Shown: positions 3,485 to 34,741 of the stretch, one piece after another
Layout: each line of letters starts with the position of its first letter
Position numbering within the stretch: the stretch's first letter is position 1
Assembly: GCF_004010195.1 (NCBI RefSeq)
Contig: NC_057758.1
Location: 8,052,120 to 8,086,860 of the forward strand
Direction: 5' to 3'
DNA: 34,741 nucleotides
Source of the DNA: Chiloscyllium plagiosum
Lineage: Eukaryota
Position numbers and translations under genes: made by a program
The notes under the pieces: generated by a model
Database searches by the model: none
The model's input: the letters and a program-made list of their open reading frames with translations, nothing else
What the model was told of the DNA's origin: nothing

Positions 3485-3709
3485 AGTCGAGAGTGTGGTG
3501 CTGGAAAGGCCTAGCAGGTCAGGCAGCATCCGGGGAGCAGGAGAATCGACGTTTCAGGCATAAGACTTTCATCAACCCCATTCCTGATGAAGGGCTTATG
3601 CCCGAAATGTCAATTTTCCTGCTCCTCAGATGCTGCCTGACCTGCTGTGCTTTTCCAGCACCACATTCTCGACTCTGATCTCCAGCATCTGCAGTCCTCA
3701 CATTCTCCT
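3485..3709. mobile_element. Penelope-like element remnant reduced to two inverted terminal (pLTR) arms
   Basis: 3485-3573 is an imperfect inverted repeat of 3585-3674; same family as the termini of 15837-17391; slightly decayed hammerhead core CTGATGA-A-GGGC-TTAT-GCCC-GAAA at 3584-3607. Confidence 0.85.
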
Positions 3710-5510: not shown

Positions 5511-5843
5511 GTGTATGTTAAAAACATCCTAAACTGTCTTCTGTAACTGTCTTTTTCTTCTTTTGTATTGTAAACCTAATCCTACGTTCACAGAATCACA
5601 GTAGGAGGCCATTTGACCCAAATGTCTGCACCAGTTCTTCTTAATGAGCATCATTACCTCGTGCCAATCTCCTGCCTTTTCCTCATACCCTTGCACACTA
5701 TTTTTATCACTTTCAATCTATGCCATCCCATCCTTGTTCCTTTTATGAGTGGGAAGGACTTCTTCCTATCTCCTCTGTCCAGTCTGCTCATGATTGAAGC
5801 TTCTCTTGTTGTGGTTCTGTTTGCCGAGCTGGAAGTTTTTGTT

Positions 5844-5883
5844 GCAAACGTTTCGTCCCCTGGCTAGGCGACATCATCAGTGC
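5844..5883 (-). ncRNA. Minimal hammerhead ribozyme motif in PLE left arm
   Basis: Reverse complement of 7199-7238. Confidence 0.75.
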
Positions 5884-6206
5884 TTGGGAGCCTCCTGCGA
5901 AGCGCTTCTTTGATGTTTCCTCCGGTGTTTATAGTGGTCTGTCCCTGCCGCTTCCGGTTGTCAGTTTCAGCTGTCCGCTGTAGTGGTTGGTATATTGGGT
6001 CCAGGTCGATGTGTTTGTTGATGGAGTTTGTGGATGAATGCCATGCCTCTAGGAATTCCCTGGCTGTTCTCTGTCTGGCTTGCCCTATGATAGTAGTGTT
6101 GTCCCAGTCGAATTCATGAATTCCGAGAGGCATGGCATTCATCCACAAACTCCATCAACAAACACATCGACCTGGACCCAATATACCAACCACTACAGCG
6201 GACAAC

Positions 6207-6964
6207 NNNNNNNNNNNNNNNNNNNNNNNNNNNNNNNNNNNNNNNNNNNNNNNNNNNNNNNNNNNNNNNNNNNNNNNNNNNNNNNNNNNNNNNNNNNNNN
6301 NNNNNNNNNNNNNNNNNNNNNNNNNNNNNNNNNNNNNNNNNNNNNNNNNNNNNNNNNNNNNNNNNNNNNNNNNNNNNNNNNNNNNNNNNNNNNNNNNNNN
6401 NNNNNNNNNNNNNNNNNNNNNNNNNNNNNNNNNNNNNNNNNNNNNNNNNNNNNNNNNNNNNNNNNNNNNNNNNNNNNNNNNNNNNNNNNNNNNNNNNNNN
6501 NNNNNNNNNNNNNNNNNNNNNNNNNNNNNNNNNNNNNNNNNNNNNNNNNNNNNNNNNNNNNNNNNNNNNNNNNNNNNNNNNNNNNNNNNNNNNNNNNNNN
6601 NNNNNNNNNNNNNNNNNNNNNNNNNNNNNNNNNNNNNNNNNNNNNNNNNNNNNNNNNNNNNNNNNNNNNNNNNNNNNNNNNNNNNNNNNNNNNNNNNNNN
6701 NNNNNNNNNNNNNNNNNNNNNNNNNNNNNNNNNNNNNNNNNNNNNNNNNNNNNNNNNNNNNNNNNNNNNNNNNNNNNNNNNNNNNNNNNNNNNNNNNNNN
6801 NNNNNNNNNNNNNNNNNNNNNNNNNNNNNNNNNNNNNNNNNNNNNNNNNNNNNNNNNNNNNNNNNNNNNNNNNNNNNNNNNNNNNNNNNNNNNNNNNNNN
6901 NNNNNNNNNNNNNNNNNNNNNNNNNNNNNNNNNNNNNNNNNNNNNNNNNNNNNNNNNNNNNNNN
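6207..6964. other. Assembly gap
   Basis: N-run. Confidence 1.
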
Positions 6965-7198
6965 ATGAATTCGCCTGGGACAACACTACTATCATAGGGC
7001 AAGCCAGACAGAGAACAGCCAGGGAATTCCTAGAGGCATGGCATTCATCCACAAACTCCATCAACAAACACATCGACCTGGACCCAATATACCAACCACT
7101 ACAGCGGACAGCTGAAACTGACAACCGGAAGCGGCAGGGACAGACCACTATAAACACCGGAGGAAACATCAAAGAAGCGCTTCGCAGGAGGCTCCCAA

Positions 7199-7238
7199 GC
7201 ACTGATGATGTCGCCTAGCCAGGGGACGAAACGTTTGC
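7199..7238 (+). ncRNA. Minimal hammerhead ribozyme motif in PLE right arm
   Basis: GCA-CTGATGA-T-[GTC g CCT agcc AGG g GAC]-GAAA-CG-TT-TGC: intact CUGANGA and GAAA core, helix II, 3-bp helix I and palindromic AACGTT helix III. Confidence 0.78.
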
Positions 7239-7519
7239 AACAAAAACTTCCAGCTCGGCGAACAGAACCACAACAACGAGCACCCGAGCTACAAATCTTT
7301 GCACAAACTTTGAAGCTTCTCTTTCCTGGGACCATTCTTGTAAATCGCTTCTACGTTCTCTGTAATGCATTCACATTGTTCATATAATGGAACGCCCACA
7401 ACTTGTACACATTACTCCACTGAGGTCTGACATGCGTCTTGGACAAGTTCAACATCACTTCACTGCTCTGGTATGTCTGGTCCTACTAATAAGGGAAAAA
7501 TGAGTTAATGAATGGCAAA

Positions 7520-9188: not shown

Positions 9189-9724
9189 TGCCGCGCATAT
9201 TGATTTGCATTTTTTTATAATCACTGCCTCCCAATCTCAGTTATCACTTTGCCTATTCATTGCTGCTTTCCAAACAAAATGAATAGAATGATCAGTTGGT
9301 CCAGCTGACTTCACAATACACGATAAAGCTCAGATTTTTCTATGATACTTCTCTTTTCCGAATCTGAATCATCCTCCGTGTAAGGCAATCTATTCCACAG
9401 AGAAAGTTCACGGAAGAAGGAAGTGAATTCTTTGCAAGATCTCTCCCAACAAAAGTTGATGTCAGGTCACAACCTGGCTGGTCGGACAAGATTCTAGGGA
9501 GAATCAAGTCGATCGTCATGTGATTTCACTCACAGTAATAGACTACTGAGGAAGTTTTCAGTTGCTGTCGTCATCGCTATAGGGTGTATATTATCTCGCA
9601 CATCAAGCACCACCCACATCATTTGTGACGAAATTCGTTGATTGCACAATTTGTTCCCCATCCGTAAGCAATATTTTCACTCACACATGCCTTTCATTGC
9701 ACATGATTACATCTTATGAAAGTA

Positions 9725-9862
9725 TGGTAATATTTGAAGGTGTGTGATTAGTTCACAAACATTTTGATCTTACATTTGATGGACATCTTATGACAATAAA
9801 ACGTCCATCAAATGAAAGAACGAAATGTTTGTGAACTAAACACACACCTTCAAATATCACCA
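9725..9862. repeat. 138-nt long hairpin (60-bp inverted arms)
   Basis: 9725-9784 vs reverse complement of 9803-9862: 55/60 identical, 18-nt spacer with further TTAT/ATAA pairing. Confidence 0.95.
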
Positions 9863-10095
9863 AACAACTTACTACTTCCACTAATGTAAAACGATAACAA
9901 ACAGCATTGTGATTCTATTTGTTTACCAGCCTTATTCGCCCAGCAGCTTATTCTAATCCATTCTTCCAGTGCTGCTGTGTTTGTTGTGTTCTCCATCTTC
10001 CTGGATGTCTCATCTCCATTATTCGTTAGACTACGGTTACTTTTGGCGAAAGATGTCATGCAATTTGAATACGTTCACCGTTTTCCTGATCCATG

Positions 10096-10714
10096 CATTA
10101 TGCACTAGGCGAGAAACCCCTAAAACAGTTTGCAGCCTGGACCCTATATGTTCCAGTTCGTTCAAGGAGAAGAGTGTGTATATTCTAGGAGTAATGCAGC
10201 TGGACCAACTGCTTAATTTTGAACAAAAAATAATGCATTTGCAAGATTATCAAAAGATAGACAAACAATTTAGAACTGAATGCCTGATCGGATCTGAAAA
10301 CCCAACAGATTATCCAAACTTAATGAAGCTGGTCCAAATACCTACAACAATCGCTGAAAACGCACCCTTAGCCAAAAAAACGGAGGTAGTGTTTTTCAGG
10401 GGAAGTGTCACATAGGAGGAGGATCAGCATGGGCATGCTTCTTTGGGACCAGCAGCTTCATAATTGTCTGCTTGCCCCCAAAAAAGAAAGCAAACGAGAG
10501 TGCAGCTTAGTTGATAGAACTGAACACTCCCATTTCATTGGGCACGTGAATTTTTTCAACCTGAATGCCTTTTGTCTGAGGCAGTATGGGTTAGCTATAA
10601 ACACTTCAGCCCTAAAGTACGTGAAACGTAGACTCCCGGGAACCTGTGTATTTATCAGCTCTCTGAGAAATTAAAAGGAAACCGTAACCTTGTTAAAGGA
10701 GCAGCATCATCACA
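10096..10714 (-). mobile_element. Solo-LTR-like relic A
   Basis: ~600 bp, similar to 14102-14540 and in reverse to 12241-12828 and 13416-14033; ends GCAGCATCATCACA. Confidence 0.5.
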
Positions 10715-11079
10715 CATGTCTTAGCTCAATTAATTATCATATACCGGCTCACCTGCATGGCAATTCTTTTAGGCAGGAATCCGCTCCCTGTCCCACAAAC
10801 TACTGCAACCAATTCCAACTGTCTACATGCACCTGGATCGCTCCCTCTGACCTTTCATCATTAGTCGACATGTTCATTGTAATCTATTAACGTCACATTA
10901 ATCGCTTCAAGTTTCCTGTTCCTCTTCCGCATTCTATGCTATCTCCCTCTGAACTGACAGCATTCCTTGATCTCAGATCCAACCTTGGCTGTTTTATTAA
11001 GATTGTCAATAAGTGTTGTGCTGCTGTTGTCTGGCCTACTCAACAAACATTACAGCTGTTCTACGTTAGCTTCTGGAAA

Positions 11080-13250
11080 CTTTCTTCTATCTCCACCTGG
11101 ACGGTGACTCCACCATGGAATATCAGGCCATAGTGTCTACAACGGTCACTAAAATTAGTTCATCCTGTTACCTCCTGTTCACTGTCTCCGTGCTCTTAGT
11201 TTCCCAAACCCGCACAAACCCGCTTCTGCCTCCTTCCTAAAATTCACAAACTGTTCAGCACATCTGTGGTTTCTGTCCACTCTTGCTCTGCAAACACATC
11301 TGTTCCAAAATCGACTCAAGGTTATTTCTCTTCTTCTTCGGTTAATTCTGACGTACATCCGCCAGCCCTCTGATGCTTTTCTCCAATTTCACAATTTCCA
11401 GTTCTCGAGCTCCAAACAGCTTCTCTTTACAATGGGACATGCAATGTCTTTTCACCTCCTCCCACACTACAGTGGTCTGACGGCGTACCACACCTTATTG
11501 AACAAAAGGGCCCATCCCCCAAGGCTATACTCTGCCTGGCCCACCTTGGCCTCACACTGAACAACTGCTATTTAATATCCTCATATCTTCTTCACGTCGG
11601 GTAGGGGAGGTAGCCACGTGTCCGTGTATCGTCCCACGTGTAGCTTTTCTCTTTGTGAGGTACATGGAGCACTCCTTATTGTCGTCCACCTGCAGTCCCC
11701 ACCCTCAAATCGTCCCCAAGGATATCGATGACATTATCATTACTGCTTCACTCTCTCATTCGGAATTGTAAATGTTAATCTATTTTGCTTCCAATTCCTA
11801 CCCTCTCTCAACTCCACCTGGTCCACCTCTGCTCTTGTCCCTTCCCATACTCGACAAATCTATTTAAATTTCTGGGGATAGACTGTCCACCAATATCCAC
11901 GAAAAGCACACTGACACATCCAGTTACCTTTCCTATATATTATCACTCTCTCCCTTCTACAAGTACTCCTTTCCATTCTCCAAGTTCCACCATCTCTATC
12001 TCATCTTGTCTGATGATGCCCCCTACCCGTTTCTCTTACCTCAACCCTACCACCTCTCTACTTGCCCTACAGGGTCGATAGGGCTTGCCTTGTTGTCACT
12101 CACCAGCAACAACATTCAGAGGAGCATTCACCGCCGTTTGTGTTACGCCGGCGGGTTGTCACCATGAGACAGATGTATCCCTCCCGTCTCTTATCAGCTT
12201 TCTGCAAGGACCATTCCAGCCGAGACGCCCTGGTCTACTCTACGATGGTGCTGCAATTTTATCAAGGTCATTTTTGACGGTTTGTTTAATAATGGAGAGT
12301 GCGTGAAAGTAGATGCGCCTTGGGGACGAGAAAGACCCGAATTTAACAAAGGCAGGGGAGAACCCGGTCCTCCCTGTTCAGGTTTCTTCTCGTTTGATTC
12401 AGCTGTGTCAGACACAAGATGCTGAAGTCCTGGATTGGTTGTAGACTTTAGCAGATGGTACCTAAATGACTTTCCATGAAATCTGTTTGGAAGTTGCTCC
12501 TTCCTACCTGTACGAATCTGTGTTTGAATTTACATATTTGCCAAGTGTATATTTATGTGGTGCTATTGGATCGCTACATTTCCTCAGTTAAGTTACTGTT
12601 TCGGCTCTGAAAATTTTAAAACAGATAAGTTATTCAAAATTCAATTTTCTAATCTTTGTGTTTCAATTGTAGCCATTGAATGCGTTTTGTTTTGCTTAAA
12701 ACTGATTGGATTGCCTAGCTGCATCATACCTGGAATATCCATTTCAAATCCGCTCTTCAAATGAGAGAAGTTAGGATCTAACGTAACTTCTTAAATATTT
12801 TTGAGAGTGTCTGGACTCATCCAAAATAATTCATGTCACACTCCTTAGCAGTTACAGAATGCGTAACTCATGCCGGCTTTCACTCTCACTCCTGACCATC
12901 CAAGACCCCAGACAGGGTATTACCTGCACTTCACTCAATCTGTCCGATTGCATTCACTGCTAGCCAAGTCCTGCCTCTGCGCTGGGGGAATTGAAACACA
13001 GACCACGTGAATGCTTCATTGAAAAAATACTTTGACAAAAAAATGCCCCAGTTGCAAGTCACTTCAACAGTCCACCATCTCAGGTTTGCTGCAGAGAAGC
13101 TTAGCACACGCTGGATACTTCGCACCTCATTTTCCACTTCGGAATCCTGCAATTTAATATCGAGTTCAACAATTTTAGCTGTCGAGCACCTTCCCCCATG
13201 CGTTTCCCCAAACCAACTCACCAGGCATATTCATCATATTGATTGTCACC
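11080..13250 (+). mobile_element. Degraded Penelope-like element (RT then GIY-YIG), interrupted by LTR-like relic B
   Basis: Frameshifted motifs RFCLLPKIHK (11221-11250), TYIR, LFTM, LTLNN, IDDII (~11724), SAFCKDHSSRDALV (~12200); CIHC..GELKHR-like GIY-YIG remnant at ~12940-13020. Confidence 0.75.
12241..12828 (+). mobile_element. Solo-LTR-like relic B inserted in the PLE
   Basis: Starts TACGATGGTGCTGC (cf. reverse complement of relic A end) exactly where PLE homology breaks; possible decayed 4-bp TSD ACTC/ATTC. Confidence 0.5.
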
Positions 13251-13260
13251 ACACACTGGG

Positions 13261-13385
13261 ACAAAATGAGGACTCCAAATGCTCAAGATCAGAGTCGACA
13301 CTGTGGTGCTGGAAAAGCACAGTCAGTCAGGCAGAATCTGAAGAGCAGGACAATTGACCTTTCGAGCACAACCCTTTTATCAGGA
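13261..13385 (-). mobile_element. PLE terminal repeat fragment
   Basis: AGATCAGAGTCGACACTGTGGTGCTGGAAAAGCACAG...CTTTTATCAGG; same family as 3485-3709. Confidence 0.8.
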
Positions 13386-13415
13386 ATACCACAAACTCTC
13401 CATCGTCAGCCACAT

Positions 13416-14101: not shown

Positions 14102-14540
14102 TGTGATGGCCCAGACCAGACCACCTGAAAATAATTCAAGATTGTTGCCCAGACACTAACTTCTCCACTCGTTCAAAAGAAATGTTGTGTGGCTTTTCCA
14201 AGTGTGGTGCAACTGGCCGAACCACTCACGTTTAAACAAAACAGAACATGTTTTCAGATTACCGATCGAAACACGAACAAAACAGAACAGAATATAAAAA
14301 AACAAGCTCTCTGAAAACCCAATCAACTCCATCGAAACTTCATGATGCAGTTCTAAAAAAAAACTTGCACCATCCTCATAGACACTTCATTTACAGAACA
14401 AAAATGGTAAAATCAAAAACAGATTATTACAGGAGAAATGTTAGAGGCCAGAGAGAGGATCAGCATGGAACTGTTTTTTGGGTGCCTGCTAAAAATTGAG
14501 CAGGATCTTCAAACAGACTGATTGCTCCAAATCTGAGCTG
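14102..14540 (-). mobile_element. Truncated solo-LTR-like relic D
   Basis: TGTGATGGCCCAGACCAGACC is the reverse complement of the relic C end; shares TCTGAAAACCCAA and GAGGATCAGCATGG with relic A. Confidence 0.55.
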
Positions 14541-15895
14541 CCATCAGTGCTGTAGAAGGGACTTTGGGCCAAGAACTTTAAGTTTGATTACACAGCAACG
14601 GTCCTGATAGGTCTGCTGAGATTTTCCAGTGATTCCTGCTTTTGTTGCAAATTTCCAATATCAACAGTTCTTTTGGACTTTTGCTGAATGTACCTTGTAA
14701 ATTCCATCAGAAATTCGAAGCATCGTTTCTACTCAGGGGAGGTCCATACATTCTCATTGTTGCCCAAGTTTCCCCCTTAAAAATACTCCGATCAGAAATG
14801 CACTTCGATTTTGTATTAGTTTCAACGATGATGTCCAACCATAAAGCACTGACTTGCGCTTCTTCCGATTCAATAGACCAGAGTTACTCCTTTGCTTTAC
14901 TTGAATTTCCTAAACTCTCTTCACTTCTGCGTTCTGGACGATTAAGGATGAACGACACATATCGGTGGAACCAGCGATACCCATCCCATGAATGAATAAA
15001 TAATCACTTTATTTACATTCTGCTAAAAGTAACTTTAGGTTGATGAAGCAACTGACGTGTTCTTTCTTTTCATTATCATCGTTAAGTGTTTAGCCCAATC
15101 GCATTCTCCCACCAAACAGTTTTGGTCTACTGATCTTAACACACATGTCTCTCATTTGGTTTTCTGGCCTGCAGCCACACCGACATATTCTCGACATTCC
15201 AGCCACAAAGTCTACTGTTATCAAAACAGATGTGAGTAAGTCACAGCTAATGTCAGTGGCGCAGAGTGTTCATAATAGGCTTCATTAATGTAAACTTGTC
15301 TCGTGAACACCAAGAAGACTATCACATGTTGAGACAATATTTCTGGACAGGTGAACATAAATTTCATATCCTATGGTCTCCTAGATATTTTCATTTGAAG
15401 GAAAAAATCCAGTCATAAACCATCCTGCAAGCATTGATCCAGAGTTACGTTTATGAGTCTCCACGAATCTGAAAAAACCCTGCGACATGAAATATCTCAA
15501 TGTTTTGAAGTGACGTTCCAACTGTTTCATTTATTCTTTTTCCGTTGCGTTTTTGAAAATTTCCATCCGTTCATTACTCGTCTCAAAACATGTTTTCCTG
15601 AATTGTATGCAATTGGGTTATTTTTATTTCCAGAACAGATTTCGACAGCTTTGGACGAACAAAGCTGATACAATCAGCTGTCAGATTCAAACATGAACTA
15701 TCATCTCACTCTGTCTCACTAATAAGCCGTTATCTTTCTTACTGTGCCTGTTAGAGCATAGAACGTAGTACATAGAACACAGAAAATTATAGCATGGGAC
15801 AGGTCCTTCAGCCTACGAAGTTGTGCCGAGGATTAAGTGTTGAAAATGTTTTGCTGGAAAAACGCAGCAGGTCAGGCAGCATCCAAGGAGCAGGA

Positions 15896-15933
15896 GAGTC
15901 GACGTTTCGGGCATGAGCCCTTCTTCAGGAATG
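15896..15933 (-). ncRNA. Minimal hammerhead ribozyme motif (left arm)
   Basis: Reverse complement of 17262-17299. Confidence 0.72.
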
Positions 15934-17261
15934 AGGAAAGTGTGCGATGCAAGCTAAAATAAAAGGTAGGGAGGAGGGACTTGGGGGAGGGGCGTTGGAA
16001 ATGCGATAGGTGGAAGGAGGTTAAGGTGAAGGTGATAAGGTGAGGGTGATTGGCCGGAGTTGGGGAGGGAGCGGAGATGTCAGGAAGAAGATTGTAGGTT
16101 AGGAAGGTGGTGCTGAGTTCGAGGGTTGGTCTGAGACAAGGTGGGGGGAGGTGAAATGAGGAAGCTGGAAAAATCTGAGTTCATCCCTTGTGGTTGGAGG
16201 GTTCCTCCTCCAGCCGTCGTGTTGCTATGGTCTGGCAGTGGAGGAGTCCAATGACCTGCATGTCCTTGGTGGAGTGGGAGGAGTAGTTGAAGTGTTGAGC
16301 CACGGGGTGGTTGGGTTGATTGGTCCGCGTGTCCCAGAGGTGTTCTCTGAAAACTCACCAATATAGAGGAAGCCACATCAGGTGCAGCGGATGTAGTAAA
16401 AGATGCGTGTGGAGGTGCAGGTGAATTTGTGGCGGATATGGAAGGATCCCTTGGGGCCTTGGAAGGAAGTAAGGGGGAAGGTGTGGGTGCAAGTTTTGCA
16501 TTTCTTGCGTTTGTAGGGGAAGGTGCCGGGAGTGGTGATTGGGTTGGTGGGGTGTGTGGACCTGACAAGGGAGTCACGGAGGGAGTGGTCTTTTCGGAAC
16601 GCTGATAGGGGAGGGGGGGGAAATATATCCTTGGTGGTGGGGTCTGTTTGGAAGTGGCGAAATGACGATGCATGATACGGTCTATATGCAGGTTGGTGGG
16701 GTGGTAGGTGAGGACCAGTGGGGTCCTGTCCTGGTGGCGATTGGAGGGGCGGGGCTCACGTGCGGAGGAGCAGGAAGTGGTGGAGATGCGATAGAGAGCA
16801 TCGTCGACCACGTCTGTGGGGAAATTGCGGTCTTTGAAGAAGTAGGCCGTCTGGGTTGTTCGGGATTGGAACTGGTCCTCTTCAACTCCCCCTCCCACTC
16901 CACCAAGGACATGCAGGTCCTTGGACTCCTCCACCGCCAGACGATAGCAACACGACGGCTGGAGGAAGAACGCCTCATCTTCCGCCTAGGAACCCTCCAA
17001 CCACAAGGGATGAACTCAGATTTTTCCAGCTTCCTCATTTCCCCTCCGGCTACCTTGTCTGAGTCCCAACCCTCGAACTCAGCACCACCTTCCTAACCTG
17101 CAATCTTCTTCCTGAACTCTCCGCCCCCTCCCCCATTCTAGCCTATCATCCTCACCTTATCACCGTCACCTTAACCTCCTTCCACGTATCGCATTTCCAA
17201 CGCCCCTCCCCCAAGTCCCTCCTCCCTTCCTTTTAGCTTAGCTTGCTTGGCACACTTTCCT

Positions 17262-17299
17262 CATTCCTGAAGAAGGGCTCATGCCCGAAACGTCGACTC
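17262..17299 (+). ncRNA. Minimal hammerhead ribozyme motif (right arm)
   Basis: TC-CTGAAGA-A-GGGC-TCAT-GCCC-GAAA-C-GTC-GA: CUGANGA/GAAA core, 4-bp helix II, GUC cleavage triplet, very short helix I. Confidence 0.75.
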
Positions 17300-20200
17300 T
17301 CCTGCTCCTTGGATGCTGCCTGACCTGCTGTGCCTTTCCAGAAACACATTTTCAACTCTGATCTCCAGCATCTGCAGTCCTCACTTTCTCCGTGCCGAGG
17401 ATTAATCCTAATGTAAAATAAAATAATCTTACTTCTGCACCCCGCAATTCACTGTTGTCCATGTGCATGTCCAGCAGGCGTTTAAATGTCCCAAATGTCC
17501 CTGCTTCCACCAACAGGCAACGCATTCCATGCATTCACAACTCTCTGCATAGAAAGTCTACTTCTTACGTCTCCTCTATACCGTCCTTCTAATAACTTCA
17601 AACTATGACCCTGCGTCCCCGACAATCCTGTCCTGGAGAAAAGTCTCCGGTAATAGACTCGATGTGTGCCTTTCATTATCTTGTCTACATCGATCTGGTC
17701 ACCTCGCTTCCTCCTTCTATCCAGAGAGAAAACGTTCAATCTTAGTCAACCACTCTTCATATGACAATCCTACCAGTTCAGGCTGCATCCTGGTAAATCT
17801 TCTTTGCGCCGTGTCCAAAGCCTCTGAATCTTTCCTATGGTTGGGGCATCAGAACTGGACACAATATTTCAAGTGTGGTCTCACCAGGGACTTGTACTAC
17901 TGTAATAATACCTCATAGCTCTTAATCTCGATTCTCCATTAATGAAAGCTAAATCACCATATGCTTTCTTAACCACCCTCTCAACTTGGGTGGTAATTTT
18001 GAGGGATCTACGTACTTGAACACCCAGATCCCGCTGTTGCTCCACGCTGCTAAGAATCCTGTCTTTAATCCTCCATTCAACATTCAAGTTCGACCTTCCA
18101 AAATGTATCACTTTGCATATATCGAGCTTGAACTCCATCTGCCATTTCTCAGCCCAGCTCTGCATCCTGCCTATGTCATGCTGCAGCCTGCAATAGCCCT
18201 CAATGCTATCAACCTTTGTGTCGTCTGCACATTTACTAACCTCCCCCTCAATTCCCTCATCCAAGTCATTTATAAAAACTGCAAAGAGCCGAGGCCCAAG
18301 AACAGACACTACCCAACACCGACCTCCAGGCAGAATAAATTACATCTACAAATACTCTCAGCTTTCTGTCAACCAAACAATCTGAAGCCAGATTGCCAAA
18401 TCTCCCTGCATCCCATACCTCCTGACATTCTAAATGGGCCTACCATGGGGAACCCATCAAATGCCTTGCTGAAGCCCATGCACACGACATCTACTGCTCG
18501 AGTTCGTCAACCTGTCTTGTATCCTCCTCGAAGACCTCAATGAGACCTTTTACGCACGGCCTACCCCTCATAAAGCCATGCTGATTGCCTTTAATCACGC
18601 TATTATTTTCAAATAGTCAGACATCCTATTTCTCAGAATTCTTTCCAAAACCTTGTTGACCACAGAAGTACGACTGACTGGTCTGTAATTGCCAGGGATT
18701 ACTCTATCACCTTTCTTGAAAAGAGCAACAGCATTCTCTACCTGCCAATCCACCCGTTGACTCCTGTGGAGAGGGAAGTATGAACGATCTTCACTCGTGG
18801 CTTAGCAATCTCCTTTCTCGCTACGTGGATTAAGCTCGGATAAATCTGGTCTGACCCTGGGGACGTATCAATCTTAATGTTCGCCAAAGGTTCCAATGCA
18901 GCAACTTCAACAATCTTGTTCTGTTCAAGCCCATATCCCAGATCCTTAAAGTTCACATTCACAAGGTCCCTTTCTTTAATGGAAGGGCACAAAACTCATT
19001 TAGGACTTCCTCTATCTGATCAGACTTCACGCACAAGTTTCCTCTACTCTCCCGGATCGGCACGACCTTCTCCATGATCATTTTCTTATTCCTCACGTAT
19101 AAATAAACTGCCTTTGGATTCTCCCTAATCCCTCCTACCAAGACTTTCTAGTGCCTCCTCCTGGCTCTCCTCAGTGCATTTCTGAGCTTCTTTATCGCAA
19201 GGCTGTACTCGACCAAAGCTGTTCAAGATCCTTTCTTCCTCCACCTTACATCAGCTTCTGTCTTCATTTTGACGAGAAGCACTTTTGTTCTCGGCATCCA
19301 ACGCTACTTCATCATACCCCTTCTTACCTGTCTCAGAGAAAAAAGTTCCTGCATCACACGCAACAACTTCTCCTTATACAGTCTCCACATGTCTGCTGTG
19401 CCATTTCTCCCAGTCTGTACTTTCCAACTCCTGTCCAATAGCGTCATAATTTCCTTTTACCCAATTAAATGTTTTCCCTTGGTAGCTGCCATTTTCTCTC
19501 TTCACGTCTATGATAATGTGAGGCAGTTGTGGTCACTGTCATCAAAGCGTTCGCCCACCACGGAATCTGACACCTGTCCTGGCTCATTGTCAAGCACCAA
19601 ATCCAAAATGGCAGCTCCCCTCGTGTGCCTGTCTACATACTGAGTAAGGAAACCCTCCTGAACACAGCTAGCAAAAACAGCTTCATCCAAAATATTTCCA
19701 CCAAGGAGGGTCCAGTTCATATTGGGAAAGTTTAAGTCATCCGTAATAACAACCCTGCTACATCTTCATTTTTCCAAAATGTGCCGTCTTATCAGTTCGT
19801 CAATCTCTCTACTGCTATTAGCACTACTGCAGTAAACCCCCAGAGTGGTGGCTGCTCCCTTGCTGTTCCTAACTTACCCCTGTAATGATTCAGTAGGCAA
19901 AGCTTCCTCAACAACCTTCATTTCTGTATCTGCGATGAACTCTCTGATTAGTAATGCTATTCCCCATTCTCTTTTTTTCCACCCTCCCTGTTAATTTTTA
20001 ACCATTCTAAAACATGTAATATCTAGCAAGCATTCCTGCTCCTGTGAAACCCACGTCTCTGTTATGGCCATAACCTCATCGCCCCAAGTACTGATCCATG
20101 CTCTAAGTTCATCACTCTTATTTTTGACAATGCTTTCATTAAAGCAGATACACATTAGCCGATCCCTTTGTTTCATCACGTGAGAAACCTTCACAACAGA

Positions 20201-21869: not shown

Positions 21870-23419
21870 CTATTATTGGAAGAGTTGAGAAATGACTTAC
21901 AATAATGTTGCCAGTGTCTGAGTAATAGGGAGAGGTTGGACAACCTCAGATATTTTAATTTAGAGTTTATAAGATTGAGGTGGGATCTTATGAAGTATAT
22001 AGGATCATGAGAGGCATGAATATGCTAAATGCAAGTGGTGTCTTTCTCAGCGTCGTGTAATCGAGGGCTAGCAGTTAGGTTAATGTTAGACGAGAAACAA
22101 TACATGAAGACTGAAATGCAAACTTTTTGCTTATGGAATGAGCTGCCAGCGGAAGTGGTGGAGGCAGATACAGTGACAACGTTTAAGAGGCAATGGACAA
22201 ATACATGAATCGGAAACACTTAGAGAGATATGCATTAAGTGCAGGGAAATGGGATTGAAGTTGATGAACATTTTGTTCTGCATGGACGAGTTTGGGCTGA
22301 AGGGCCGGTCTGCATGTTTTAGGACTCTATGACTCGATGACTCGATGAATTGCAGTACCGTGAACTAATACTAAATCTGAAACATGATTTATTCAGAGGT
22401 AAGCACAGTACTTACGCGACATTCAGAGTATTAGTTACAGTCCTGGTAAATTAGTAACAGTGGATCAGGAATAAACTGCTTGATATTTCGCATCCCATTC
22501 GTCCTTCACCGATATCAGAACTGACCTCTCAGCTCCACAACGCTGTCTGCAGCTGATCATTATTGAGGCCTTTACTGAACAGAACCGGATCAGCTCAACA
22601 TTGAATATCCTGAAAGACTCTGAGGATCTAATCAATCTTGGACACTTTGCTGTAGGAAGATGTTACTATTATTGGAAGAGTTGAGAAATGACTTACAATA
22701 ATGTTGCCAGTGTCTGAGTAATAGGGAGAGGTTGGACAACCTCAGATATTTTAATTTAGAGTTTATAAGATTGAGGTGGGATCTTATGAAGTATATAGGA
22801 TCATGAGAGGCATGAATATGATAAATGCAAGTGGTGTCTTTCTCAGCGTCGTGTAATCGAGGGCTAGCAGTTAGGTTACTGTTAGACGAGAAACAATACA
22901 TGAAGACTGAAATGCAAACTTTTTGCATATGGAATGAACTGCCAGCGGAAGTGGTGGAGGCAGATACAGTGACAACGTTTAAGAGGCAATGGACAAATAC
23001 ATGAATCGGAAACACTTAGAGAGATATGCATTAAGTGCAGGGAAATGGGATTGAGGTTGATGGACATTTTGTTCTGCATGGGCGAGTTTGGGCTGAAGGG
23101 CCGGTCTGCATGTTTTCGGACTCTATGACTCGATGAATTGCAGTACCGTGAACTAATACTAAATCTGAAACATGATTTATTCAGAGGTAAGCACAGTACT
23201 TACGCGACATTCAGAGTATCAGTTACAGTCCTGGTAAATTAGTAACAGTGAATCAGGAATAAACTGCTTGATATTTCGCATCCCATTCGTCCTTCACCGA
23301 TATCAGAACTGACCTCTCAGCTCCACAACGCCGTCTGCAGCTGATCATTATTGAGGCCTTTACTGAACAGAACCGGATCAGCTCAACATTGAATATCCTG
23401 AAAGACTCTGAGAATCTAA
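21870..23419 (+). repeat. Local tandem duplication (~760 bp x2: 21870-22631 and 22666-23419) made of a plus-strand CR1 3' end and an older minus-strand CR1 3' relic
   Basis: Near-identical direct copies with a 34-bp spacer; unit 1 has an extra GACTCGAT; TATGGAATGA.CTGCCAGCGGAAGTGGTGGAGGCAG is the CR1 WNELP.EVVEA segment. Confidence 0.93.
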
Positions 23420-24598: not shown

Positions 24599-26249
24599 AG
24601 GCCGCGTGAGAGAAAAGTAATTGCTGCTTATCCTCAAGTATGCAGCTGGGGCCCAATGGCACAAGCAGCTGCAAACATCTCCCTTTACGTTTTTCGTTCA
24701 CCGTAATCTTGACGAGTCAAAGATGTGGGCACCCAACAACAGCCGTCATCACTTATTCAGCAGCACCGAGACTGCGAGCAGGGACTCCAGCCTGTGCTCT
24801 TCATCCGGATTGGCAAGTTCTGATCCATTCACATCCATTCGTTCAGTATGACTGCGCCCAGCTTTTGCGCATTCTGGCGAATGTCCCTGAATTTATGCCT
24901 TTAAAAATGAATACAAACTCTTACTGTGGTTTGTGCTGTTTATGGAGGAAGGATGTACAAAACGAATGCGCCAAATGATGCCGCTCGCAGAGTCTGGCTG
25001 TCAGAGGTTGCTAAAGATTCTCAGAGCAGACCAAAAGAGGGAGTCTTCACGATGCACACTCTAATTGCTTCAAGCGGAGTACATCCAGTACTTTTGCCAT
25101 TTTTTGGTGTTTAGCTTAGACACGGATAATATTTACACACCGCAGGACATCAGTGCAAAAAATTGCTCCACCATGACCATGTTGTTAATTGTTGTATTTT
25201 GCATTGAATCCACGTTTTCTACCGTTTCCACAGTATCACAGTTCACCAGTAATTCGTTGTTATCCCAAGACGCAGGAGGAAAGTTTCCCTTTCAATTTTC
25301 ATTCCCTTGGTCTCAGTTTACTGCTTTCTCCTGATCGACCCCATTCGTAGCTTCATCATTTGTTTTTCTTTCTCTCTCTCTCTCCCTGCCTATCTGCATC
25401 TCTATCTCGATCTATGATCACATCACTTTCTCTATATCCCTCTTCCTGTCTTCTTTTCCCACCTTCCCCACTTTTCCTCTCTTAATTTTGATTATATCTT
25501 GCATTCTGTATTTTGCTGCCTTCCGTAGTTTCACAAGTTCAATCATCAGTTCATTCCCCCCTCATTCTTACAGTGTCCCGCAATTCTTCTTTATCTGTCT
25601 GATGTGTCCAGCTGCCTCAGATGTTTAAATGTTTCTTTAATTTTATTTACTCGTTGGTCCAGCACTTATGGTCGATATATAATTGACCCTTGTGAAGGTG
25701 GCTGTGAGCGGTCTTGTTGAATCGCTGAATCAATGTGCAGTCAGTAGTTCTATAGTGCCAACAGAGAGGGAATTCCGGGATTTGGGCCAAGTGATACTGA
25801 GGGGATGGTAAAATATTTCCAAGAAAGGACAGTAAGAAAGCTTGGAAAGGAACTGGCAGAGGTAGTGTTTCCATGTATCTGCTGTCGTTGCCCTTGCAAA
25901 TAGTCGTGGGGAGATACTTTCGAAGAAACTTCATAGAATTTCTGCACGGCACCTTTCATGATAGCACACAGAAAGCGGTGGATATTTGTGGATACTAACC
26001 GAAGCATTCAGTCTATTTTGTCAACATAGCTGGTGCCAAATCTGAATAGATTGCTTTTCAGTATCATGATCTCTTTTAGTTTATCTTTGACAAAGAGGAC
26101 CGGTTTCAATTGGATGCATTGTTGTCGTGTCCATCAGGCGGGTTTCTTCATCCTGAATGGTGTCGAGGATCTCGAGTTTTATTGGAGCTTCACCCATCCA
26201 GGCAACTAAAGCGTATTCTGTCGCACCTCTGACTTGTGCATATTCGATG

Positions 26250-26378
26250 ATGGCTCACGAAGAGCTGACGCTCGAAACGTCAATTGTCCGGCTCCTTGGA
26301 TGCTTTGTGACCGGCTGTGCTTTTCCAATACCACATTCTTTACTTTGATCTACAATATCTGCAGTCCTGACTTACTCC
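26250..26378 (+). mobile_element. PLE terminal repeat fragment with decayed hammerhead
   Basis: GAAGAGCTGACGCTCGAAACGTCAA...GCTGTGCTTTTCCAATACCACATTC...ATCTGCAGTCCT; same family as 3485-3709. Confidence 0.75.
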
Positions 26379-26405
26379 CAGGATTTGGAGGATGTCAGGT
26401 AAGTT

Positions 26406-30350: not shown

Positions 30351-31601
30351 AGGAGACAGGTGAGGTCTGCAGATGCTGGACGTCAGAGTTCAGCGTACAT
30401 TTCTGGAAAAGCACAGCAGGTCAGGCAGCATCCGACGAACAGAGAAATCGACGTTTCTGCTTGGATCCCTCAGGATTGAGGTTGGGAGCCTCTGTGATGG
30501 AGAGATAAATGGGAAGAAGGTGGGGCTGGGAGAAAATAGCCGAGAGTGCAATCGTTGAATGGACGTGGGCGTAATGTTGATAGGTCGGAGACGAGGGTGG
30601 AGGGGATAGATGAAATGGAAGATTGATACGTGGGACAGATCACGAGGGCTGTGCTGAGCTGGCAGTTTGGAATTGGGGTAAGGTGGAGAGAGGGAAAATG
30701 AGGAAATTGGTGAAATCCACATTGATGCCCTAGTGTTGACTGAACCCGAGGCAGAAGATAAGGCTTTCTTGGTCCAGGCATCGGGTGGTGAGGGAGTGGA
30801 GACTGGGGAGACCCAGGATCCTCATGTCCTCAGCAGAGTGGGAGGGAGAGTTGAAATATTCAGCCACAGGGTGGTGGGGTTGATTGGTGCGGGTTTCCCA
30901 AAGAAGGCGTCCAGTAGGGCAGACTGCATCGGGAGCAACGGAGAAAATAAATGACGTGTGGAATTGCAGCTGAAACTTTGATGAATATGGAAGGCTCCTC
31001 TGGGGCCTTGAACAGAGGTAAGGGTGGAGCTGTGGGCGGAGGGATTGCAATTCATGTGGTGGCAGGGAAATGTGCCAGTAGTGGTCGATGGCTTATTAGG
31101 GGGCTAGACAAGATAGTCATGGAGGGAAGAAACCTTGTGGAAAGCAGATGGGGGTGGGGAGGGAAATATATCCTTGGTGATGGGGTCCATTTGAATGTGG
31201 CGGAAATGTAGGCAGATGATGCAATTTATGCGGATGTTGGTGAGGTGGAAGTTGAGGACGGGGAGGTTCTGTTCTTGTTGCGGTTTGAGGAGTGGGCGTC
31301 GATGGCGGAGGTGCGGGACGTGGATGATATGCTGTGGAGGGCAACTTCAAACACTTCGGATGGGAAATGTCAGTCTTGAAGGAAGGAAGCCATCTGTTGT
31401 GTTCTGTGGTGGAACTGGTACTGTTGGGAGCAGATGCGGTAGAGGCGGTGGAATTGGGAATACCGGATAGCATTTTCGCAGGAGATAGAGTGGGAGGAGG
31501 TGTAGTCCAAATAGCTGTGGGTGTCAGAGGTTTGTAAAAACTGTCAGTGTTGAGTCGGTCCTCGCGGATGGAGACAGAGAAGACTAGGAAGGGGAGGGAG
31601 A
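30351..31601 (-). mobile_element. Decayed Penelope-like element (RT thumb, GIY-YIG, terminal repeat), cut by the gap
   Basis: SLPFL..SVSIREDRLNTDSFYKP; PVAEYFNSPSHSAEDMRILGL; terminus homologous to 15837-16100. Confidence 0.88.
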
Positions 31602-32101
31602 NNNNNNNNNNNNNNNNNNNNNNNNNNNNNNNNNNNNNNNNNNNNNNNNNNNNNNNNNNNNNNNNNNNNNNNNNNNNNNNNNNNNNNNNNNNNNNNNNNN
31701 NNNNNNNNNNNNNNNNNNNNNNNNNNNNNNNNNNNNNNNNNNNNNNNNNNNNNNNNNNNNNNNNNNNNNNNNNNNNNNNNNNNNNNNNNNNNNNNNNNNN
31801 NNNNNNNNNNNNNNNNNNNNNNNNNNNNNNNNNNNNNNNNNNNNNNNNNNNNNNNNNNNNNNNNNNNNNNNNNNNNNNNNNNNNNNNNNNNNNNNNNNNN
31901 NNNNNNNNNNNNNNNNNNNNNNNNNNNNNNNNNNNNNNNNNNNNNNNNNNNNNNNNNNNNNNNNNNNNNNNNNNNNNNNNNNNNNNNNNNNNNNNNNNNN
32001 NNNNNNNNNNNNNNNNNNNNNNNNNNNNNNNNNNNNNNNNNNNNNNNNNNNNNNNNNNNNNNNNNNNNNNNNNNNNNNNNNNNNNNNNNNNNNNNNNNNN
32101 N
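31602..32101. other. Assembly gap
   Basis: 500-N run. Confidence 1.
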
Positions 32102-34560
32102 GATACTTCTCTTTTCCGAATCTGAATCATCCTCTGTGTAAGGCAATCTATTCCACAGAGAAAGTTCACGGAAGAAGGAAGTGAATTCTTTTCAAGATCT
32201 CTCCCAACAAAAGTTGATGTTAGGTCACAGCCTGGCTGGTCGGACAAGATTCTAGGGAGAATCAAGTCGATCGTCATGTGATTTCACTCACAGTAATATA
32301 CTACTGAGGAAGTTTTCAGTTGCTGTAGTCATCGCTATAGGGTGTATATTATCTCGCACATCAAGCACAACCCACCTCATTTCTGACTAAATTCGTTGAT
32401 TGCACAATTTGCTCCCCATCCGTAAGCAATATTTTCACTCACACATGCCTTTCATTGCACATGAATACATCTTATGAAAGTATGGTAATATTTGAAGGTG
32501 TGTGATTAGTTCACAAACATTTTGATCTTACATTTGATGGACATCTTATGACAATAAAACGTCCATCAAATGAAAAAACGAAATGTTTGTGAACTAAACA
32601 CACACCTTCAAATATTACCAAACAACATACTACTTCCACTAATGTAAAACGATAACAAACGGCATTGTGATTCTATTTGTTGACCAGCCTTATTCGCCCA
32701 GCAGCTTATTCTGTGTGCTGTGTGGCTTTTCCAAGTGTGATGCAACTGGCGGAACCACTCACGTTTAAACAAAACAGAACATGTTTTCAGATTACCGATC
32801 GAAACATGAACAAAACAGAACAGAATATAAAAAGCAAGCTGTCTGAAAACCCAATCAACTCCATCTAAACTTCATGATGCTATTCTAAAAAAAACTTGCA
32901 CCATCCTCATAGACACTTCATTTACAGAAAAAAAAATGGTAAAATCAAAAACAGATTATTACAGGAGAAATGTCAGAGATGAGAGAGAGGATCAGCATGG
33001 AACTGCTTTTTGGGTGCCTGCTAAAAATTGAGCAGGATCTTCAAACAGACTGATTGCTCCAAATCTGAGCTGCCATCAGTGCTGTAGAAGGGACTTTGGG
33101 CCACGAACATTAAGTTTGATTACACAGCAACGGTCCTGATAGGTCTGCTGAGATTTTCCAGTGATTCCTGCTTTTGTAGCAAATTTCCAATATCTGCAGT
33201 TCTTTTGGACTTTTGCTGAATGTACCTTGTAAATTCCATCAGAAATTCGAAGCATCGTTTCTACTCAGGGGAGGTCCATACATTCTCATTGTTGCCCAAG
33301 TTTCCCCCTTAAAAATACTCCGATAAGAAATGCACTTCGATTTTGTATTAGTTTCAACGATGATGTCCAACCATAAAGCACTGACTTGCGCTTCTTCCGA
33401 TTCAATAGATCAGAGTTACTCCTTTGCTTTACTTGAATTTCCTGAACTCTCGGCACTTCTGTCTTCTGGACGATTAAAGATGAACTACACATATCGGTGG
33501 AAACAGCGATACCCATCCCATGAATGAATAAATAATCACTTTATTTACATTCTGCTAAAAATAACTTTAGTTTGATGAAGCAACTGACGTGTTCTTTCTT
33601 TTCATTATCATCGTTAAGTGTTTAGCCCAATCGCATTCTCCCACCAAACAGTTTTGTCTACTGATCTTCACACACATGTCTCTCATTTGGTTTTCTGGCC
33701 TGCAGCCACACCGACATATTCTCGACACTCCATCCACAAAGTCGACTGTTATCAAAACAGATGTGAGTAAGTCACAGCTAATGTCAGTGGCGCAGAGTGT
33801 TCATAATAGGCTTCATTAATGTAAACTTGTCTCGTGAACACCAAGAAGACTATCACATGTTGAGACAATATTTCTGGACAGGTGAACATAAATTTCATAT
33901 CCTATGGTCTCCTAGATATTTTCATTTGAAGGAAAAAATCCAGTCATACGCCTTCCTGCAAGCATTGATCCAGAGTTACGTTTGTGAGTCTCCATGAGTC
34001 TGAAAAAACCCTGCGACATGAAATATCTCAATGTTTTGAAGTGACGTTCCAACTGTTTCATTTATTCTTTTTCCTAAGCGTTTTTGAAAATTTCCATCCG
34101 TTCATTACTCGTCTGACAACATTTTTTCCTGAATTGTATGCAATTGGGTTATTTTTATTTCCAGAACAGATTTCGACAGCTTTGGACGAACAAACCTGAT
34201 ACAATCAACTGTCAGATTCAAACATTAACTATCAGCTCACTCTGTCTCACTCATAATCCGTTATCTTTCTTACTGTGCCTGTTACAGCATAGAACGTAGT
34301 ACATAGAGCACAGATAATTATAGCATGGAACAGGTCCTTCGGCCGACGAAGTTGTGCCGAGGATAAAGTGTTGAAAATGTTTTGCTGGAAAAACGCAGCA
34401 GCTCAGGCAGCATCCAAGGAACAGGAGAGTCGACGTTTCGGGCATGAGCCCTTCTTCAGGAATGAGGAAAGTGTGCCAAGCAAGCTAAAATAAAATGTAG
34501 GGAGGAGGGACTTGGGGGAGGGGCGTTGGAAATGCGATAGGTGGAAGAAGGTTAAGGTGA
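32102..34560 (+). repeat. Segmental duplication copy 2
   Basis: 32102-32712 matches 9344-9954 and 32716-34560 matches 14183-~16030. Confidence 0.95.
32483..32620. repeat. Second copy of the 138-nt hairpin
   Basis: Arms 32483-32542 and 32561-32620; two substitutions versus 9725-9862. Confidence 0.95.
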
Positions 34561-34741
34561 GGAGCAGCTCAGGCAGCATCCAAGGAACAGGAGAGTCGAC
34601 GTTTCGGGCATGAGCCCTTCTTCAGGAATGAGGAAAGTGTGCCAAGCAAGCTAAAATAAAATGTAGGGAGGAGGGACTTGGGGGAGGGGCGTTGGAAATG
34701 CGATAGGTGGAAGAAGGTTAGGGTGAGGGTGATAAGGTGTG
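34368..34741 (-). mobile_element. Duplicated copy of the PLE left arm in the CR1 tail, with hammerhead motifs at 34428-34463 and 34594-34629
   Basis: Same insertion junction GTGCCGAGGAT.AA|GTGTTG as at 15836; ~165 bp internally repeated near the window end. Confidence 0.88.

Follow-up and report, generated by a model that had tools for sequence, protein, structure and literature searches.

A long hairpin in a multi-copy block of cartilaginous-fish-like DNA, probably formed by a one-off fold-back insertion

The window (the whole stretch of 34,741 nt that was analysed) is repeat-rich vertebrate DNA with three gaps. Penelope-type ends and palindromes are located at positions 3485-3674, 5806-7276, 13259-13387, 15836-17359, 26246-26388, 30352-30470 and 34367-34739, and some of these ends carry intact minimal-hammerhead motifs (3584-3614, 5844-5880, 7202-7238 and 30447-30473). 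The window also contains a 28/56-bp minisatellite (1-400), a local tandem duplication of ~760 bp with 97% identity (21870-22631 and 22666-23419) and a 166-bp two-copy tandem repeat of a Penelope-type end (34397-34728). Open reading frames (ORFs) of at least 75 aa were searched with Pfam (99 of 108, the 9 low-complexity frames being left out), and one weak match was obtained: a LINE fragment with likeness to reverse transcriptase (RVT_1, E 0.006) at 17884-18339 on the minus strand. No host gene was found in this set, or among the 11 local ORFs around the hairpin, where a single meaningless match (E 0.05) was returned.

The feature under study is a long hairpin, and the hairpin is real. Two 60-nt arms (9725-9784 and 9803-9862) form 55 Watson-Crick pairs out of 60, as had been reported in a sequence-only reading of this locus, and the five exceptions on the plus strand are exactly those listed there: three A.A (9747, 9767 and 9772), one U.G (9765) and one A.C (9729). 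That reading had also proposed that the spacer pairs further to leave a loop of about 4 nt, and this was borne out: the full stem runs from 9722/9865 to a 4-nt loop (9792-9795), giving 70-bp arms (9722-9791 and 9796-9865) with 62 of 70 Watson-Crick pairs. The minimum free energy (MFE) of copy 1 was -81.0 kcal/mol on the plus strand and -88.1 kcal/mol on the minus strand (z -18.8 and -17.0), with 0 of 200 shuffles as good; copy 2, described below, gave -79.4 and -85.4 kcal/mol, respectively. Over two copies and two orientations the values thus lay between -79 and -88 kcal/mol (z -16 to -19), and none of the 200 shuffles made for each reached them. The minus strand is more stable than the plus strand by 6-7 kcal/mol in both copies and pairs in uninterrupted runs of 22, 17 and 19 pairs. 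On the plus strand the geometry is that of a 60-bp stem with a partly paired 18-nt spacer, and on the minus strand that of a 70-bp stem with a 4-nt loop. In a 150-nt scan, the hairpin ranked third in the window by strength, behind two Penelope-type palindromes. The plus-strand spacer holds the only canonical poly(A) signal found on either strand in 9189-10300 (9795-9800), which is about the chance expectation.

An 11-mer had been noted just upstream of the hairpin and again in its loop. Both copies were located, at 9709-9719 and 9783-9793 (32467 and 32541 in copy 2), and the 11-mer occurs nowhere else in the window. The match is exact and non-extendable, and its second occurrence lies across the junction between the left arm's inner end and the loop, so that the direct 11-nt repeat brackets the left arm only and not the whole hairpin. 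The chance of such a match is 6e-7 per site. Repeats of 11 nt spaced by 60-90 nt were found at 8 of 31,510 unmasked positions, corresponding to four loci, two of which are the hairpin copies.

The hairpin lies within duplicated DNA. The unit had been described as tandem, and its duplication stands; it is more precisely made of a 611-bp and a 1.85-kb block with 96-97% identity, which are 4.2 kb apart in copy 1 only. The first block, with the hairpin inside (9344-9954), has 17 differences per 611 nt from 32102-32712, and the second (14183-16029) is 96.2% identical over 1848 nt to 32716-34560. In copy 2 (32102-34560) the two blocks are joined and begin directly after a 500-N gap (31602-32101), which the two copies flank; the 11-mer and hairpin of copy 2 span 32467-32623, with arms at 32480-32549 and 32554-32623. 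The left arm and loop of copy 2 are identical to those of copy 1, as had been stated, and the hairpins differ only at two right-arm positions, 9818 and 9858; each of these copy-specific changes leaves a G.U pair on the minus strand. The further claim that copy 2 had repaired the mismatch at 9858 did not hold: T makes up the full depth at this position in each of two DNA runs from public archives (216.3 of 216.3; 241.4 of 241.4), and the pair was therefore most likely lost in copy 1.

Between the copies, 2 of 144 positions differ in the hairpin (1.4%) and 76 of 2117 in the flanks (3.6%), with p=0.11 in a Fisher test of low power, and selection cannot be argued from the retention of the hairpin in both copies. 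Arm against arm, 5 of 61 positions are mismatched (8%; 4 of 58 under another parse). Since this exceeds the 3.6% found between the block copies, the hairpin is probably older than the amplification.

The depth of coverage was counted at 85% likeness in the two public DNA runs (X1 and X3). These runs belong to two studies, and the assembly itself may have been built from one of the two. In X3, one contig of 238 nt with 2 differences covers 9631-9868 at a depth of 115, and in X1 two overlapping contigs (9265-9817 and 9788-9954) lie over the hairpin at a depth of 174-193. Over the right arm, the main contig of X1 differs from copy 1 at 5 positions, as many as copy 2 does there, and like copy 2 it departs from the stretch at 9954. 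The main contigs of the first block had depths of 174-193 (X1) and 115-121 (X3), and variant contigs beside them had depths of 16-23. Depth is not a copy number; if the small contigs are taken as single copies, the block would be present in roughly ten copies. These contig depths support the earlier suggestion that the hairpin was amplified together with its array. In some copies of the block, 123 bp at 9279-9403 are replaced by 4 nt, in both DNA runs.

An assembly or library artefact (a chimera made by fold-back, or a pair of alleles placed next to each other in the assembly) is extremely unlikely. Both copies begin at or near scaffold gaps, and the differences between them (9344-9954 plus 14183-15835 compared with 32102-34366) are mostly transversions (47 of 76), which is unusual for vertebrate paralogues and may include assembly errors. 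Against such an artefact, the hairpin is spanned by the single X3 contig and covered by the overlapping X1 contigs, and its arms differ from each other at sites that are fixed in both copies.

Two opposite-strand joints were seen at the hairpin. The joint 9725/9904 (depth 65 in X1 and 51 in X3) probably reflects 41 bp deleted at the hairpin's right foot and misplaced on the left arm; the joint 9649/9816 (depth 87, in X3 only) could represent a variant with an inversion or a duplication. Either joint would be in keeping with a mutagenic palindrome.

The same data bear on whether the hairpin could be a tiny MITE or another non-autonomous DNA transposon consisting almost entirely of its terminal inverted repeats. 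The hairpin is short, AT-rich and almost wholly inverted repeat; its 70-bp arms are terminal inverted repeats by form and were matched to no transposon family. Rfam gave no match at the gathering score in the whole window and 14 sub-threshold matches in 9189-11100, of which 12 were miRNA models placed on the hairpin; these all score well short of their thresholds and reflect structure, the models being those of long AT-rich hairpins. Many dispersed copies with other flanks were however not seen at 85% likeness: the depth over the hairpin (three bins, 9701-9892) was 249-392 in X1 and 198-365 in X3, like that of the flanks, and among the entries listed no loose ends or new flanks were found at the hairpin borders. 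By comparison, two very short and very high-copy repeat fragments that lie 400-900 nt away (10277-10340 and 10661-10724) reached depths of 17,434-55,603. No target site duplication (TSD) of 3-12 nt is present at the symmetric ends, and the direct repeat frames a single arm and not an element. The MITE option of the sequence-only reading is therefore not supported, given the flat depth and the missing TSD, and a transposon of this kind is very unlikely.

The third option raised there, a fold-back replication scar, is the best supported, by the one-arm bracket of the 11-mer and by the local templates. The most probable reading is that the hairpin arose once, when non-coding DNA gained an insertion by fold-back (template switching), and then became a passenger of the multi-copy block; no function was found for it. 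Because the two 11-mer copies bracket the left arm alone, they are the signature of a '4-before-1' template switch. In a four-point reconstruction, the left arm (9720-9782, plus strand) would be an insert of 63 nt that is explained by local templates: it matches the reverse complement of 9805-9862 at 53 of 58 positions and, after a skip of 10 nt, that of 9873-9877 at 5 of 5. The right arm (9805-9865, plus strand) would be the original template sequence. Between the arms lies an inner quasi-palindrome (9783-9804, minus strand), with 9 bp, two G.T wobbles and a 4-nt loop, which is the candidate fold-back primer. When 9709-9782 is taken out, a simple allele remains, and the present allele is rebuilt on the minus strand from three pieces: normal copying to 9783, the 63-nt middle, and normal copying again from 9793. 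As DNA, the inner stem folds on the minus strand only, with marginal stability (-0.2 vs 0.0 kcal/mol); this is the strand demanded by the geometry of the repeat, and the stem has two terminal Watson-Crick pairs.

The proposed sequence of events is as follows. The ancestral allele would have held a single 11-mer and no left arm. Synthesis of a minus strand, at a fork that had stalled or a break that had been resected, may have halted at 9783; the strand would then have paired with itself through the 9-bp wobble hairpin (9783-9804) and used its own sequence as the template for about 60 nt. Folding back would free the last template bases, so that the strand could rejoin 11 nt behind its point of departure; rejoining there, at the putative return point 9709-9719, would have written the 11-mer twice, with a net gain of 74 nt. 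Under the published naming rule, the switch order would be 3-2-4-1. Drift between the arms, amounting to four or five shared substitutions, would have preceded the amplification of the block. The hairpin would since have moved with the block, as is in part shown, and would not have dispersed alone; it is probably now in neutral decay, and any transcript of it would be incidental double-stranded RNA.

Events of this kind are documented. Many cases in which switch point 4 lies before point 1 were reported by Walker et al. (2021), leaving a direct repeat and looking like one large insertion, with a copied length of median 12 and maximum 128 (PMC7954356). Loytynoja and Goldman (2017) found no such events (PMC5453318), which was later ascribed to their filter. 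As in the published events, the local reverse-complement copy would have created an inverted and a direct repeat with the look of a single insertion, and its length is within the maximum of 128; in contrast to them, about 60 nt would have been copied (median 12), the direction was assigned without an outgroup, and amplification of the block would have followed. Two terminal pairs are enough for Pol theta to extend a stem-loop (Carvajal-Maldonado et al., 2024, PMC11292364), which puts break repair on a par with a stalled fork as the setting. In that system, as far as the cited sections describe it, a weak 3' hairpin with two terminal pairs likewise primes itself, rejoins and leaves an inverted repeat; here, the polymerase or pathway is not readable from sequence. 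Snap-back templated insertions (SD-MMEJ) belong to the same comparison.

Several observations stand against the fold-back origin. The primer hairpin is of marginal stability, and its density of mismatches (2 of 9) is not significantly above that of the arms (5 of 61, p=0.22). The copied length is far above the median of such events, the outer end requires a second small skip or two untemplated bases, and the core mismatches are biased towards U.U and G.U on the minus strand, as described below. A possible extension of the stem outwards past a 10-nt bulge was borderline (P 0.03 and 0.05) and is at most homology that helped the return switch. No allele free of the left arm was found among 15 of the 25 contig joints in the public DNA runs. 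An error-prone polymerase as the source of the A.A mismatches was considered and dropped: the sites are too few, and one of four is at an ambiguous boundary.

Fold-back in unique DNA also leaves unexplained a hammerhead-like motif and a weak likeness to Penelope ends. In the alternative that these suggest, the hairpin is the decayed end of a Penelope-like element (PLE): the right arm and the 11-mer would be a worn, hammerhead-bearing pseudo-LTR (pLTR), and the inverted arm would have been made either when the inserting element primed its own synthesis or when DNA later folded back on the relic. A relaxed minimal-hammerhead pattern gave 6 matches in the window, namely four Penelope-type ends and the two hairpin copies (9787-9832 and 32545-32590), and was found in 2 of 3000 dinucleotide shuffles. 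The right arm aligned over ~50 nt to the Penelope-type end at 5806-5920 (score 28, shuffle P=0.0015 in a targeted test), and PLE palindromes are present in the window. According to the cited part of Arkhipova et al. (2013, PMC3846280), PLE insertions often show an inverted pLTR that overlaps the direct one at a palindrome.

However, both the hammerhead pattern and the alignment target were picked after the site had been seen; 0.3-4% of all stretches of the window score equally, and nhmmer gave no match at E up to 10. The motif at 9787-9832 (plus strand) is degenerate, with one mismatch in the core, a spacer of 28 nt and 1 of 3 helix II closing pairs, unlike the minimal hammerheads as far as described in the text cited from Cervera and De la Pena (2014, PMC4209133). 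A working ribozyme at this position was rejected on account of the core mismatch and the unpaired helix II. No family was detected at 85% likeness in the two DNA runs, although the arms differ by only ~8%, and no exact TSD of at least 6 nt was found even with a tail allowed (the longest had 5 nt); the best inexact candidate had P=0.81. In comparison with the pLTR palindromes presented in the cited portions of those two papers, the hairpin shares a head-to-head palindrome, which here too would be formed by self-priming, and a hammerhead-like motif, degenerate here, at its centre, and such elements are common in the window; it differs by the lack of an intact core or helix II, of a TSD and of family copies at 85%, and by a motif that spans the centre where one per arm is described. 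A PLE end is thus unlikely as the origin; an old PLE relic is a possible template for the fold-back.

A functional hairpin RNA can be compatible with either origin, fold-back or PLE. Here the hairpin would be a young RNA source, of which a minus-strand transcript would form the 70-bp duplex and be diced to endo-siRNAs or a non-canonical miRNA, or be edited by ADAR, its dose being raised by amplification of the block. The minus strand folds better, as given above, and four of the five mismatches in the core of each copy read as U.U or G.U there (simulated P 0.020-0.029, with the strand chosen afterwards and a small sample). The G.U pairs left by both copy-specific changes and the lower point estimate of divergence in the hairpin point the same way, and hairpins born by template switching became miRNAs in primates, according to the cited part of Monttinen et al. 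(2023, PMC10710096). Nevertheless, the difference in conservation between hairpin and flanks is not significant (p=0.11), and the MFE of the stem was no better than that reached by neutral decay (P 0.36-0.84 on the minus strand and 0.45-0.85 on the plus strand) when a perfect stem received five substitutions drawn from the spectrum of the flanks.

The geometry was compared with published descriptions. The stem is imperfect with at least the 16 paired bases given in the cited MirGeneDB text, which also lists reads from both arms, 5' homogeneity and 2-nt offsets (PMC12539619). Microprocessor is described as preferring a stem of about 35 bp with an open loop of at least 10 nt (PMC10710096). Neither strand offers this, and the 70 bp of the stem and 4 nt of the loop lie far from it. 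Long miRNA hairpins were reported to be absent from vertebrates (PMC12553114, as cited in part). The hairpin shares with the template-switch-born miRNAs of Monttinen et al. the inferred origin of the whole stem in one event, whereas the miRNA-like class, in the part of that study cited, has stems of 30-55 bp, mostly in introns of expressed genes; here the stem has 70 bp and a 4-nt loop, and the Pfam searches found no host gene. With the long-inverted-repeat hairpin RNA and endo-siRNA loci of LIRBase (PMC8728187), as presented in the cited passage, it shares a long, nearly perfect inverted repeat able to form double-stranded RNA, but its arms have 70 nt where the cut-off there is 400 nt, and the present hairpin is known from DNA alone.

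No Rfam family matched at the gathering score, and apart from copy 2 no second locus of the window matched the arm as a target. No reads were found over 9189-10276 among 12,955,460 records of one poly(A) single-cell run (about 2/100 of the run), a type of library that is blind to small RNAs. A 20-nt motif of the arm had no match in metagenome contigs, as expected for vertebrate DNA, and no such locus was found in literature on shark small-RNA hairpins and lineage-specific shark miRNAs. The hpRNAs of Drosophila belong to the same comparison as the LIRBase loci. Among the 24 runs listed in a search of sequencing runs, all of one organism, none identified as RNA contained the sequence, a blank that says nothing about expression. 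Contigs of a further run (X9, RNA or thin DNA) lie at 9337-9629 (depth 2-7) and 9932-10084, with none at 9637-9892; three sister runs had a similar word share (0.20-0.26), and 9337-9629 could be an exon if the run is RNA, or chance if it is thin DNA.

The proposal of an endo-siRNA or young miRNA source thus drew no positive support: conservation is not in excess, the energy is that expected of neutral decay, the geometry is not that of a pri-miRNA and poly(A) single-cell reads are absent. A functional hairpin RNA is accordingly unlikely. Its fullest form is quite improbable, in which a hairpin made in one event, possibly on a dead Penelope hammerhead end and now in some ten copies, would be transcribed from the minus strand into a 70-bp duplex and yield defined small RNAs in the shark germline or embryo.

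If the hairpin did yield small RNAs, this processing would raise its importance: it would be a newborn endo-siRNA-like locus with a long stem, in vertebrates, which reportedly lack long miRNA hairpins, and the bias towards U.U and G.U would be a mark of selection. Under the preferred reading, a one-off fold-back insertion carried along by its block, the kind of event is already known and the hairpin is a further example. It would be a clean and fairly long case of the less common '4-before-1' outcome, in which the primer hairpin, the copied arm and the rewritten 11-mer are all legible in a cartilaginous-fish-like genome. A hairpin that resembles an RNA gene can then arise in one step and multiply without selection, which calls for caution in the search for small-RNA genes.
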